From assembly GCA_964613745.1 (NCBI GenBank), contig CAZTJA010000014.1, positions 1-43,320 on the forward strand: DNA of 43,320 nt, read 5' to 3'. Each line of letters begins with the position of its first letter. The stretch's first letter is position 1. Source of the stretch: an uncultured Syntrophaceae bacterium. Its GTDB lineage: Bacteria; Desulfobacterota; Desulfomonilia; Desulfomonilales; Desulfomonilaceae. Under the pieces are notes generated by a model that saw nothing but the letters and a program-made list of their open reading frames with translations, was not told the origin of the DNA and did no database searches. The translations under genes and the position numbers were made by a program. Shown here one piece after another: positions 20,147 to 41,025 of the stretch.

Positions 20147-20231
20147 GCGAGAGTGGCGGAATTGGCAGACGCACTGGACTTAGGATCCAGCGGGGCGACC
20201 CATGGGGGTTCGAGTCCCCCCTCTCGCACCA
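20147..20231 (+). tRNA. tRNA-Leu (anticodon UAG), type II with a long variable arm, genomically encoded CCA
   Basis: Acceptor stem GCGAGAG/CTCTCGC. Anticodon stem CTGGA/TCCAG with loop CTTAGGA (anticodon TAG). Long variable arm. T-arm GGTTCGAGTCC. 3' ACCA. Confidence 0.85.
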
Positions 20232-33112: not shown

Positions 33113-33829
33113 TTAAGCAGCCTTGTACGTATCGGAAATTTTCTTAAGGCTTTCAGTCATTTCATTCACATTTTGAGCGATGTCTCGCACTGATTCTAAA
33201 ATGTCGAGAAATATCGAAGAAGCCCTGGGCACACAATCCCCTTTAAGAAGACGATCTTCATGTGCATCAGCATAATCGATGGTCATCTGAATAATCTTCT
33301 TTTGTTGATTGATGAGAATGTCCAGGAGAGAGGGATTTAAAGTAGAAAGCAGATCCCGGAATCCTTTAAGATTATCCGCAAGCGTATCAAAAAGCAGCGT
33401 AAGTTCGGAGGTAGCCCTTTCACTGAAGGCGATACCGTCACGATCTTTGATGTAAGCACAATTTAGTATACTCTCAAGATGGTCGCCGGATCTTTCGAGT
33501 TTGCCCGGGAAGAGAATTACGGTTTTAAGTACTTTTTCGGTTTTGTCGGGATTGCAGACAATGGCATTCGTCAGTTCTTTTTCTTCTTGATGGACTTCCT
33601 CACCTAAGGTCTTACAACGGCTGATTTTTTCAGGATCGCAGAGTATAAGGTTCTTAGATACGAGCTGAGTCATTTCCATCAGCTTTGTAACCATTACCAA
33701 AAGACCCTCTTCGAGGCACGTCATTTCGGGCGGAGGCGTCTCATACAGTTCTGTGAGTCGGCTTGCTTCCGCATTCAACTTCGGACTGATAAGTCGAAAC
33801 GGATTGAAGAAAACGTCTTTTTCTTTCAT
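33113..33829 (-). CDS. PhoU-like / DUF47 family protein (putative phosphate transport regulator-related)
   Basis: Helical protein of PhoU/DUF47 type. RBS AAAGGAGGG upstream. Confidence 0.55.
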   Translation of the reverse strand: MKEKDVFFNPFRLISPKLNAEASRLTELYETPPPEMTCLEEGLLVMVTKLMEMTQLVSKNLILCDPEKISRCKTLGEEVHQEEKELTNAIVCNPDKTEKVLKTVILFPGKLERSGDHLESILNCAYIKDRDGIAFSERATSELTLLFDTLADNLKGFRDLLSTLNPSLLDILINQQKKIIQMTIDYADAHEDRLLKGDCVPRASSIFLDILESVRDIAQNVNEMTESLKKISDTYKAA

Positions 33830-37964: not shown

Positions 37965-38887
37965 AGAGCGATAACAAAAAGAGAATCGACATTTTGCTAA
38001 ACCCGAAGGCGGGTACGAGCGGCAACACTGCCGACCACCTAAGGCAATTGTTCGACGCCTGCGACGATCATTTGGTTCTAGTTCATTTATGCAATAACTC
38101 CTTGGATATGGAGTCTTTTTTGGATCAGGCATTGTTCGGGGGAGCAGACATAATCGTAGCGGCCGGCGGAGACGGTACGGTAAGTTCAGTGGCAAGGAAA
38201 CTGGTGGGGAAAACAGCCGCTCTCGGAATATTGCCAATGGGCACTCTGAATCATTTTGCTAAGGATTTGGGTGTTCCTTTAGACATAGAAGAGGCGGTTC
38301 ATGCAATCTGCCGGGGTGAATCCAGAAAAGTCGATGTGGGAGAAGTTAACGGTACATTTTTTATTAACAACGTAAGCCTTGGCTTCTATCCCAAAGTTCT
38401 GAGATTTAGAGATAAACTGAAGCCTTATATCGGAAAGTGGCCGGCAATGATTGCGGCTGTTTTCCAAACCGCCTTTAGACTACCCTTTTTCAAGGTGAAA
38501 CTATTTTGGGACGGCAATCAGGTCCGTAGATTTGCTCCTCTCATTTTTGTGGGAAATAATCCATACGAAATGCACTGGCCTGATGTAGGGAAAAGGTTGT
38601 CTCTGGAAAAAGGTGTACTTTGGGTAATGTTGCTCAGAAGCAATGGGATATTGAGTAATTTAAGATCAGCATGTCTTGCCCTTGTAGGTCGTATGTCTGA
38701 AAATAAAGATGTGGAAGTGCTGGAAATGAAAGAACTCGTTATTCGTTCAAGACGTCGACGTTTTTCATTAGGCGTTGACGGTGAGCTTATCCGACATCGT
38801 GGCACTCTTCGCTTTCAAATTCATCCACAGAAACTCAACGTCATCGTGAAGAATCATTCAGGCTCGGATTTGACAACCGATGCATAA
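37937..38887 (+). CDS. Diacylglycerol/lipid kinase catalytic domain protein (YegS-like)
   Basis: DAGK_cat motifs (ILLNPKAG, IIVAAGGDGTV, LGILPMGTLNHFA). Confidence 0.75.
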   Translation: MEAGCSGKIKSDNKKRIDILLNPKAGTSGNTADHLRQLFDACDDHLVLVHLCNNSLDMESFLDQALFGGADIIVAAGGDGTVSSVARKLVGKTAALGILPMGTLNHFAKDLGVPLDIEEAVHAICRGESRKVDVGEVNGTFFINNVSLGFYPKVLRFRDKLKPYIGKWPAMIAAVFQTAFRLPFFKVKLFWDGNQVRRFAPLIFVGNNPYEMHWPDVGKRLSLEKGVLWVMLLRSNGILSNLRSACLALVGRMSENKDVEVLEMKELVIRSRRRRFSLGVDGELIRHRGTLRFQIHPQKLNVIVKNHSGSDLTTDA

Positions 38888-38927
38888 TGAGTTAAGCTCG
38901 GAATTCAAGACTTTGCCACGGGTGAAC

Positions 38928-39020
38928 ATGTCAGCCATTATTACAAATCAGTCGAAAATCAACCAAGCCGATTTTGAGGCATTCTTTTTTTGCTTTTTTA
39001 TTCCGGATCCGCTCGGATAA
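38928..39020 (+). CDS. Candidate Phe-rich leader peptide (30 codons: MSAIITNQSKINQADFEAFFFCFFIPDPLG)
   Basis: ATG preceded by GGTGA. Seven Phe codons within 11 codons (six in an eight-codon stretch). Lies directly upstream of alternative hairpins, an intrinsic terminator and a Phe-pathway gene. Confidence 0.5.
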   Translation: MSAIITNQSKINQADFEAFFFCFFIPDPLG

Positions 39021-39079
39021 GCTGAAAAAGTTTGCCCCGGGTGGATCTAAACGGTCCCCCGGGGTTGCGAATATACAAA

Positions 39080-39114
39080 CCCCGAGGATAACTCCTTCGG
39101 GGTTTTTTATTTTT
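39080..39114 (+). terminator. Intrinsic terminator / attenuator hairpin (CCCCGAGG-ataact-CCTTCGGGG followed by TTTTTTATTTTT), 18 nt before the aroF-pheA fusion start
   Basis: GC-rich 8-bp stem with a U-run. The upstream hairpin GCCCCGGG...CCCCCGGGG (39034-39064) can alternatively pair with the terminator 5' arm (CGGGG/CCCCG), giving antiterminator logic. Confidence 0.6.
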
Positions 39115-39132
39115 GGAATGTTGGAGTTAACC

Positions 39133-41025
39133 ATGATCCTAGTTCTTAAAAGAGGAATCTCCGACCAGGAGATCGAAGAATTAAAACAGAGATTGCGCAG
39201 TGAGGAATGTCTCATAAAAGAAATAAGGGGAGTGGAGGAGACGATACTGGGTGTCGTTGGAACAGTGCGGAACGATGTACGTTATTTTGAGACTTTGCCG
39301 GGAGTAGTAAAAGTCGTACCGATCTCGAAACCTTACAAATTGGTAAGCCGTGAACTCCATCCTGAACCGAGCCTTGTGAAAGTAGGACCGGTAACCATAG
39401 GGGGAGACAGGCTGGTAGTCATTGCCGGTCCTTGTGCTGTGGAAGAGCGTGATCGGACAATGGAAATTGCTCGGCAGGTCAAGCAGTATGGTGCCGTTCT
39501 TTTCCGAGGAGGAGCGTTCAAGCCGAGAACCTCACCTTATTCGTTTCAGGGACTCGGAGAAGAAGGGCTCAAAATACTTGCTGAAGTTAGAAATGAAACA
39601 GGCATGGGCGTAGTGACCGAAATGACTTCCCCCAGTCAAGCCGATCTCATGTGCAAATACGTAGATGTCGTTCAGATCGGCGCGAGAAATATGCAGAATT
39701 TTGAGTTGCTCAAGAGCGTGGGGCGAATGGGTTTACCGGTCCTTTTGAAACGAGGACTATCCGCGACAATTGAAGAATGGCTTATGTCTGCCGAATACGT
39801 ACTTTCCGAGGGGAACAATCAGGTCATTCTGTGCGAGCGAGGCATCCGAACGTTTGAGAGATTTACCCGAAATACCCTGGATTTAAGTGCCGTTCCGGTC
39901 ATCAAATCCTTGACACATCTGCCCATAATAATTGATCCGAGCCATGCCACCGGCATACGGGACAAAGTAGCGCCCATGGCAAGGGCGGCTGTTGCCGTCG
40001 GGGCGGATGGAATCACCGTTGAGGTCCACACCGACCCCGATAAAGCTTTGTCGGATGGTCCTCAAAGTCTCTACCCGGATCAGTTCAAGCAGCTCATGCG
40101 AGATCTACACGTAATCGCCCCGGTAGTTGGAAAACAGCTCGATTTTCATTACTTGGAAAAAGCTGTGAAATTGTTTGAAACAGGGACTCCTTTGAAGAAG
40201 GAGCACAAGGTCGTCTACTCTGGAGTTCCCGGTTCATTCAGCCACAAGGCATGTGTTCAGTACTTCGGAAACGAGATTTCTGCGGAAGGTCGCGTTTCTT
40301 TCAAGGATATTTTTGAAGCCCTGAGTACGGGCGAAGCTGCGCTCGGCCTCATTCCACTAGAGAATTCTCTGACAGGAAGTCACCATGAAAATTACGATCT
40401 CCTTTTGGAATACGAACTTCAGATCGTAGGTGAGATCACATTGAGGATAGAACACCACATGATTGGGAATTCATCTGATGTAGATCTTGATTCCGTCAAA
40501 CGTGTCTATTCTCACCCGCAAGTATTTGAACAATGCAAGGATTTCCTGAAACTCCATCCCCAGTGGGACCTGATTGCATGCACCGATACTGCAACGGCTG
40601 TTCTGCGGGTAAAAGAGAATGATGATGCTCAGGAAGCTGCTATTGCCGGTAAAGAAGCTTTGGAGCTTTATGGAATGGCTCTCATCAGAGAAAATATAGA
40701 ATCAAGCCCCAGGAATTTCACGCGGTTCGTCCTAATTTCAGCAGGCGAATTTCTCGGTCGCGATAAGAATAAAACATCTCTCATCTTCTCCGTGAGTGAT
40801 CGCCCTGGAAGTCTCCATGAAGTACTCAAGATCTTTGCCGATCACGATATAAACATGGTTAAGCTGGAATCAAGACCTATTCACGGCAAGCCATGGGAAT
40901 ACATGTTTTACACGGATCTTGAAATCAATATTCATCGACCGGAGTATTCGACGGTCCTTGAACAACTAAAAAACTCGACGGAATTCCTAAAAATTTTGGG
41001 AACGTATTCCAAGGGGAGTTGCTGA
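39133..41025 (+). CDS. Fusion protein: class I-beta DAHP synthase (with N-terminal ACT-like regulatory domain) fused to prephenate dehydratase (PDT plus ACT)
   Basis: DAHPS/KDO8PS-like core ([20 protein letters not shown]) followed by PDT motifs ([27 protein letters not shown]...W.YMFYTD). Start taken at ATG 39133 with RBS GGAG; the 38974 extension listed in the ORF track is rejected. Confidence 0.85.

Follow-up and report, generated by a model that had tools for sequence, protein, structure and literature searches.

In this study, we analysed a stretch of 43,320 nucleotides (nt) from an uncultured Syntrophaceae bacterium, hereafter called the window. At positions 38928 to 39132, directly upstream of a gene in which a DAHP synthase (DAHPS) is fused to a prephenate dehydratase (PDT), lies an element that, judging from comparative sequence analysis and folding models, is very probably a ribosome-mediated phenylalanine (Phe) leader-peptide attenuator of this fusion gene. 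A preliminary description of the window had proposed as much, and the proposal is now supported by 34 loci, by an excess of Phe codons in the leader frame and by covarying stems. The element contains a small open reading frame (ORF) with a run of Phe codons, an intrinsic terminator and two mutually exclusive sets of covarying helices, its geometry is conserved, and it belongs to a family of related RNAs. From this we infer that the leader is translated, that ribosomes stall on it, that the choice between the two folds is kinetic, and that the gene responds to Phe. Phe attenuation is plausible in its logic, since the regulated enzyme makes Phe. The more specific model, a relay of alternating RNA segments, is in our view probable on the same grounds.

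The features needed for the argument are given below. Helices are named after the segments that they join, and MFE stands for minimum free energy.

38920 to 38925, + strand: Shine-Dalgarno (SD)-like GGGUGA of the leader ORF (anti-SD duplex -5.7 kcal/mol)
38928 to 39020, + strand: leader ORF, 30 codons and TAA, MSAIITNQSKINQADFEAFFFCFFIPDPLG (ATG at 38928, TAA at 39018-39020)
38973 to 38999, + strand: putative regulatory Phe codons, F16 at 38973, F19-21 at 38982-38990 and F23-24 at 38994-38999 (five UUU, one UUC)
38978 to 38995, + strand: 5' strand of helix P0, contains Phe codons, pairs with 39019-39036 (MFE folds; duplex)
39005 to 39016, + strand: segment 1, last leader codons, GGAUCCGCUCGG (helix energy, pairing counts, covariation)
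39019 to 39036, + strand: A-rich spacer forming the 3' strand of P0, AAGCUGAAAAAGUUUGCC (MFE folds; duplex)
39035 to 39048, + strand: segment 2, partner of segment 1 (via 39037-39048) or of segment 3 (via 39035-39047)
39053 to 39066, + strand: segment 3, partner of segment 2 or of segment 4
39077 to 39087, + strand: segment 4, 5' arm of the terminator, with segment 3 as alternative partner
39094 to 39105, + strand: segment 5, 3' arm of the terminator
39103 to 39114, + strand: U tract of the intrinsic terminator, UUUUUUAUUUUU, that is U6-A-U5
39005-39016 with 39037-39048: helix 1:2, read-through fold
39035-39047 with 39053-39064: helix 2:3, terminating fold
39057-39066 with 39078-39087: helix 3:4, antiterminator, read-through fold
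39077-39087 with 39094-39105, followed by the U tract: helix 4:5, terminator
39133 to 41025, + strand: regulated gene, DAHP synthase (ferredoxin-like N-domain and type I catalytic domain) fused to prephenate dehydratase and an ACT domain, 630 amino acids (Pfam DAHP_snth_FXD, DAHP_synth_1, PDT, ACT)

The 30-codon ORF and its SD sequence are present as first described. Seven Phe in 11 codons had been reported for it; the count is six in nine consecutive codons (F16, F19-21, F23-24), and this run is the sole 9-codon window with at least six Phe codons in the 43-kb window, both strands and all frames included. A smaller Phe cluster (…IRQFFFFLMDF…, five in nine) occurs in a 42-amino-acid ORF at 33479-33607, antisense to a 238-amino-acid ORF; it is probably due to chance, because neither a terminator nor a biosynthetic gene adjoins it.

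Downstream of the Phe run, the first hairpin spans 39034-39065, at most 1-2 nt off the 39034-39064 initially given. An intrinsic terminator is likewise present where one had been placed (39080-39114), with a stem at 39077-39105 of 11 pairs, six of them G-C, and a tract which reads U6-A-U5 and not U8. To these two hairpins our analysis adds segment 1. Its partner is the 5' arm of that first hairpin (GGAUCCGCUCGG with CCGGGUGGAUCU, 39037-39048), in a helix of 12 pairs, three of which are G-U, with an energy of -19.1 kcal/mol; the corresponding values for 2:3 and 3:4 are -23.8 and -14.8 kcal/mol. As duplexes, 1:2 reaches -22.5 kcal/mol, which none of 500 shuffled partners matched, and 3:4 reaches -17.3 kcal/mol, matched by one in 500. 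The region as a whole also folds better than its shuffled versions (z = -2.95). Given the pairing with the extra segment, the first hairpin would act as an anti-antiterminator (or, in half of the relatives, as a first terminator).

We then compared the element with its relatives. A total of 168 loci around relatives of the fusion protein were fetched. A profile search of genome contigs, based on a 15-protein alignment, selected DAHPS-core motifs and yielded mostly distant DAHP synthases (five of 80 loci were useful); the remaining loci came from a metagenome scan and from exact-protein look-ups. The fusion protein has hundreds of full-length relatives, including more than 120 full-length homologues at 68-77% identity. 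The nearest ones (75-79% identity) come from Desulfomonilaceae and Desulfomonile metagenome-assembled genomes (MAGs), others from Syntrophobacteraceae, Desulforhabdus and Desulfoferrobacter. A Phe-rich leader ORF, together with the same stems, was found in 34 orthologous loci from at least three Desulfobacterota lineages (Desulfomonilaceae-, Syntrophobacteraceae- and Desulfobacterales-type). The ORF lies 110-350 nt upstream of the fusion gene in 31 aligned loci and in three loci of named taxa. A conserved Phe-rich ORF and compensatory changes in the stems, which the preliminary description had suggested looking for, are thus both there. Most orthologues with at least 55% identity and enough upstream sequence have the small ORF. 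Clear exceptions are non-Desulfobacterota genomes and two loci, L101 and L143, which lack a leader because the fusion gene directly follows another gene. Upstream of relatives with 53% identity or less (Spirochaetes, Firmicutes, Acidobacteria and others), no run of at least five Phe in nine codons was present in the loci fetched.

Three types of leader can be distinguished by their ends: Desulfomonilaceae-like (...GFFSFFSLDPPG-stop), Syntrophobacteraceae-like (...GFFFFFFRSVHLGY-stop) and Desulfobacterales-like (...GRFFFSFRSVHPVV-stop). The genes further upstream differ from one relative to another (an ACT-domain gene, a sigma-54 activator on the other strand, HigB), and the leader and all stems are kept throughout, so the element appears to travel with the fusion gene. 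This bears on the idea that we are looking at a constitutive terminator of the upstream DAGK-like gene, next to an unrelated hairpin and a small ORF that arose by chance. In the window, that gene indeed shares the strand of the leader and stops 40 nt short of its ATG, and a terminator scan found no separate terminator for it. However, the element follows the fusion gene and not the upstream gene, and its Phe run is the only one of its kind in 43 kb. The comparative data effectively refute this explanation, to which we give almost no credence.

A covariance model, R1, was built from 30 relatives with the window excluded. It matches the window once significantly, at 38979-39113 on the + strand (79.3 bits, E = 2.9e-16); a weak match on the minus strand over the terminator arises because the stem is palindromic. 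Across all the loci fetched, R1 matches are confined to the regions upstream of Desulfobacterota-type fusion genes. Outside the training set they include L166, whose fusion protein is identical to that of Desulforhabdus amnigena, L167, whose fusion protein is identical to that of Desulfoferrobacter suflitae, and L168, from a Desulfomonile tiedjei MAG.

Several loci depart from the common arrangement. At L146 (1147-1471), a variant carries two serial Phe-rich small ORFs (…GFRFFVFFTDT and MRLGATYFAQFADGRLFFFSFFMGVRPVS) with rearranged G+C-rich stems, and scores only 51.6 bits against the family model. In five loci (L096:1133-1500, L002:2746-3000, L090:1259-1500, L086:1241-1372 and L105:728-857), 130-370 nt of extra sequence separate the terminator from the gene start, and part of this sequence holds further inverted repeats resembling inserted elements. 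In the Desulfomonile-type loci L081 (546-983) and L168 (297-734), a same-strand gene for a 145-amino-acid ACT-domain protein (ACT, ACT_8) is found about 500 nt upstream, preceded by a POR-family gene; a link to amino-acid sensing is possible. Finally, the leader ORF at L085 (1248-1361) was called a 37-amino-acid hypothetical protein by a public gene caller, and has no Pfam hit.

Is the Phe run selected for its coding capacity? All 34 relatives have 4-9 Phe codons per leader. The leader frame holds 190 Phe codons, against 96 and 111 in the other two frames, and is strictly the richest in 30 of 30 leaders; UUC accounts for 54 of the 190. Of 31 leaders, 29 contain an in-frame ATG that yields a peptide of 20-42 amino acids, and in 18 the SD duplex at a start codon is at least as strong as -4 kcal/mol. 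These figures have to be set against another explanation, in which the stems form a switch worked by a small molecule (a riboswitch), a protein or a tRNA, the U-rich stretch is structural, and the Phe coding is accidental. A poly-U run does yield Phe codons in every frame, and in the window the Phe-codon stretch pairs with the A-rich spacer, the P0 duplex reaching -18.0 kcal/mol (z = -6.2 versus shuffled spacer). This U:A helix, however, is missing from over half of the family. The consistent excess in the leader frame with third-position variation between UUU and UUC, the in-frame ATGs, and a stop codon within 5 nt of segment 1 in all correctly framed leaders except L086 are also at odds with accidental coding. 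In addition, conserved positions lie almost all in stems, leaving no unpaired conserved core that would resemble a ligand pocket, and no riboswitch or T-box family reaches E = 10 in Rfam. We therefore judge a switch of this kind very improbable, and retain ribosome-mediated attenuation as the explanation of the Phe run.

Evidence for two alternative folds comes from pairing counts and covariation. The 34-sequence alignment was fitted to helices 2:3 and 4:5 only, and not to 1:2 or 3:4. Across it, 85.7% of the cells are paired for 2:3, 98.4% for 4:5, 91.6% for 1:2 and 86.8% for 3:4, this last count being blurred by a 1-nt register shift in the Syntrophobacteraceae subgroup (the subgroup alignment A3 is cleaner). 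The fold made of 2:3 and 4:5 is 91.1% paired with 57 double-change cells, values which none of 500 shuffles reached, and six of the nine pairs of helix 4:5 covary. The fold made of 1:2 and 3:4 is 87.5% paired, again a value reached by none of 500 shuffles; sliding the partner columns by one lowers it to 54-61%. In every aligned leader, the final codons complement the first hairpin's 5' arm. Within segment 2, one column (G/A) shows covariation both with segment 1 (C-G in 24 sequences, U-A in five, U-G in five) and with segment 3 (G-C in 29, A-U in five). Such a three-way covariation points to alternative pairing, since nothing else predicts it.

The same pattern is sharper among the 13 Desulfobacterales sequences, where both mutually exclusive folds are 97.7% paired, with 98.5% for 1:2 and 96.9% for 3:4. 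The antiterminator drawn initially, in which the first hairpin's 3' arm joins the terminator's 5' arm, is thus conserved family-wide and in this subgroup. Desulfobacterales leaders have one more helix, 0:1 (GGACGCUUCU...AGAAGCGUCC), which holds the Phe codons in its loop, is 98.5% paired and shows C-G to U-A changes. RNAalifold, run on this subgroup, independently predicts 0:1 together with 2:3 and 4:5. The simplest explanation of the recurrent peptide tails of the leaders (GR...RSVHP, DPPG) is that they arise as a side effect of these constraints on the RNA. It is also a possibility that the conserved C-terminal peptide (DPPG-stop or HPVV-stop, and DPLG-stop in the window) slows termination or peptide release as well, and would so hold the ribosome on segment 1.

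The preliminary description had laid out the window as a 1:2, 2:3, 3:4 arrangement of three helices, and its doubt concerned the gap of about 35 nt between the Phe codons and the first hairpin. The three helices exist and are conserved, and the gap is real; what was missing is segment 1 (39005-39016), the pairing of which accounts for the gap. A plain attenuator of the trp/pheL type could still be imagined, in which 39034-39065 would play the role of 1:2, 39057-39066 with 39078-39087 that of 2:3, and the terminator that of 3:4, a stalled ribosome disrupting 1:2. All three of its helices are real. Yet 34 nt separate the end of the last Phe codon from the hairpin, and a stalled ribosome, reaching about 39000-39009, cannot open a hairpin that begins at 39034. 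This scheme also leaves unexplained the covarying complementarity between the leader end and the 5' arm of the hairpin, with its C-G to U-A changes, as well as the fixed distances that separate segment 1 from the Phe run on one side and from the stop codon on the other. It seems to us most unlikely.

These distances are indeed conserved. They were counted on 32 of the 34 leaders, those framed correctly (the automatic frame was wrong for L103 and L087). From the start of the last Phe codon to the core of segment 1, the spacing is 10-14 nt in 32 of 32 leaders, and 10-11 nt in all but one. The stop codon begins 1-5 nt after segment 1 in 31 of 32 leaders, and 1 nt after it in the window. The sole exception is L086 (1107-1241), in which the stop is immediately 5' of segment 1; there, a terminating ribosome would still cover segment 1 by its downstream footprint. 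The 3' edge of a ribosome lies about 12 nt past the first base of the A-site codon, and this footprint was assumed here. A ribosome awaiting Phe-tRNA at F19-F21 would then end at about 38994-39000 and leave segment 1 free, and a ribosome at the stop codon would bury it.

The relay that we propose would work as follows. When Phe-tRNA is scarce, the ribosome would stall within the Phe run (38982-38999), and its 3' edge would not quite reach segment 1. This segment could then capture segment 2 as the latter emerges, which would leave segment 3 for segment 4; no terminator would form, and transcription would read through into the fusion gene. When Phe-tRNA is ample, the ribosome would reach the stop codon and cover segment 1, so that 2:3 and then 4:5 would form and transcription would end at about 39110. 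If no ribosome is present, the Phe codons may pair with the A-rich spacer (P0), or, in Desulfobacterales, segment 0 may pair with segment 1. P0 or 0:1 would probably bias the ribosome-free RNA toward the terminating fold; from the loop lengths, P0 should be sterically incompatible with 1:2.

Nascent-RNA prefixes were folded with the ribosome-covered part masked, in a model that is thermodynamic only. Three positions of the ribosome gave the following predictions.

Ribosome stalled at F21: 1:2 complete (12/12) once segment 2 emerges, then 1:2 with 3:4 once segment 4 emerges
Ribosome stalled at F24: partial 1:2 only, then termination
Ribosome at the stop codon: 2:3, then 4:5 only

A number of observations weigh against this scheme. 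In the model, a ribosome on the last two Phe codons already covers 2-5 nt of segment 1 and termination follows, so that only stalls at F19-F21 work cleanly. At equilibrium, the full leader favours the terminating fold (-40.3 versus -33.9 kcal/mol), which implies that read-through would have to rely on kinetic trapping. For the passage from 1:2 to 2:3, findpath gives a barrier of about 12.8 kcal/mol, which agrees with such a trap but is no proof of it. Helix 1:2 appears even in the equilibrium fold of the ribosome-free nascent RNA. Conservation is lacking for the element that would enforce termination in the absence of translation: only 14 of 31 relatives have a significant P0, which was rejected as a family-wide feature, and a 0:1 helix in the window (38963-38974 with 39005-39016) does no better than shuffles (z = -0.55) and was likewise rejected. 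The shuffle statistics overstate independence, as the sequences are phylogenetically related.

The start of the leader raises further objections. Its SD spacing is short, with 2 nt between GGGUGA and the ATG. The best promoter of a consensus scan, TTGCCA-17-CATTAT (38913-38941), would initiate inside the leader ORF. Lastly, the upstream DAGK-like gene is on the same strand and very close. An alternative in-frame start, ATG 38880, would give a leader of 46 amino acids and overlaps the stop of this gene (ATGCATAA, 38880-38887); translational coupling between the DAGK-like gene and the leader, or co-transcription of the two, is possible. A candidate sigma-70-type promoter, a weak one read by eye and not picked up by the consensus scan, sits within the 3' end of that gene:

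38870 to 38898, + strand: TTGACA (38870-38875), 17-nt spacer, TAAGCT (38893-38898)

Two known systems are close to the element. With the pheL-pheA system of Escherichia coli and other gamma-proteobacteria (PMC3082878) it shares a leader ORF with Phe codons, alternative hairpins, an intrinsic terminator and a prephenate dehydratase gene, and also the logic by which scarcity of Phe-tRNA leads to read-through. The likeness to pheL/pheA seen at first therefore stands as far as regulatory logic goes, and does not extend to topology, which matches that of the his leader. The leader has 30 amino acids here and 15 in pheL; the Phe codons lie upstream of the 5' strand of the antiterminator and not in the segment pairing with it; there is an extra hairpin layer; and the target is a DAHP synthase fused to PDT-ACT instead of a chorismate mutase-PDT. 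No sequence or structure homology to pheL was detectable, and none of the seven weak Rfam matches over 38400-39600 (E up to 10) is to a Phe-leader model.

In the his leader, helices AB, CD and EF (the terminator) form when transcription is attenuated, and a ribosome covering A leads to BC and DE (PMC10989985). The topology of the enterobacterial hisL, with its segments A-F, is the same as here, where 0:1 (or P0), 2:3 and 4:5 alternate with 1:2 and 3:4. The Rfam model His_leader (RF00514) aligns end to end over 38935-39111, with 15.9 bits versus a threshold of 49 (E = 9.9). Unlike hisL, the element has Phe and not His codons (there is no His run in the leader), belongs to another pathway and is not a sequence homologue. 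The window's equivalent of segment A is the Phe run, which pairs with the spacer and not with segment 1, and the middle hairpin has a U tract of its own in half of the relatives. Since the his leader has the same wiring, the relay is not new in principle. What is particular here is the DAHPS-PDT fusion as target, and a 2:3 hairpin with a U-rich tail in 17 of 34 members. Three Rfam memberships were rejected as sub-threshold, namely His_leader, anti-hemB (19.9 bits versus 49) and the 'trpB ncRNA motif' (RF04312; 21.3 bits versus 59, at 39000-39114). The last of these likewise combines a hairpin with a terminator behind it, and is perhaps of the attenuator type itself.

The literature on such leaders in this lineage is scant. 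Gurvich et al. (2011, Nucleic Acids Res., PMC3082878) devote one sentence to a putative pheL in Desulfobacterium autotrophicum, from the same broad lineage (Desulfobacterales), with the same idea of a pheL-like leader on a pheA-type gene; their main text gives neither its structure nor its distribution. In the searchable full-text literature, this is the sole relevant statement on this lineage. Rodionov et al. (2004), on delta-proteobacteria, make no mention of attenuators, and Naville and Gautheret (2010) contain nothing on pheA or on Desulfo- taxa. By analogy with Desulfobacterales leaders such as MKNSTIYTNRFFFGRFFFSFSSAHPVV, the putative pheL of D. autotrophicum, whose genome is outside the loci fetched, would probably fall in the family defined here.

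The U-rich tails deserve attention. Helix 4:5 is a terminator in all family members. In 17 of 34, a U-rich tract directly follows the 2:3 hairpin as well (columns 111-119 of alignment A5; for instance L098:1266-1408, L003:2824-2962 and L088:1307-1455), which suggests two serial terminators under one sensor. In the window this tract is absent (UUGCGAAUA). We put forward, tentatively and with more doubt than confidence, that Desulfobacterota independently evolved an attenuator made of one ribosome sensor, a segment relay and two serial terminators, of which the window would be a derived form, its first terminator having lost the U tract and been kept as an anti-antiterminator. If this were true, two serial terminators would make a double-gated, steeper response to Phe.

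As to the regulated gene, its ATG at 39133 (39134 had been given initially) is preceded by an SD-like UGGAG at 39122-39126, and follows the U tract of the terminator after 18 nt, as first described. A TTG at 38974 opens an ORF that would extend the fusion protein, and the preliminary description had raised it as a possible true start. This was rejected, because the 15 aligned homologues all begin with M-I-L at the position of ATG 39133, and because the extension would cross the terminator. Elsewhere in the window, a tRNA-Leu (anticodon TAG, 20147-20231) is the sole Rfam match at gathering score.

Taken as a whole, the evidence gives good support to a new family that uses a textbook mechanism, one barely noted in this lineage so far. 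The family will not surprise the specialist, but it is clean, open to testing and of use for annotation; it changes no principle of gene regulation. Covariation, the covariance model and the conserved geometry document leader-peptide attenuation in Desulfobacterota, for which the searchable literature offers only a one-line suggestion. They define an RNA family of at least 34 members, undetected by Rfam, whose leaders are annotated as a hypothetical protein of 37 amino acids or overlooked. As one relay is found with either one or two terminators, the family constitutes a natural series for studying how attenuators are built and tuned. For the bacteria themselves, the element indicates that charging of Phe-tRNA throttles the shikimate pathway at its entry and the Phe-specific step as well, the two being carried by one fused protein, which is relevant to metabolic models of these anaerobes.

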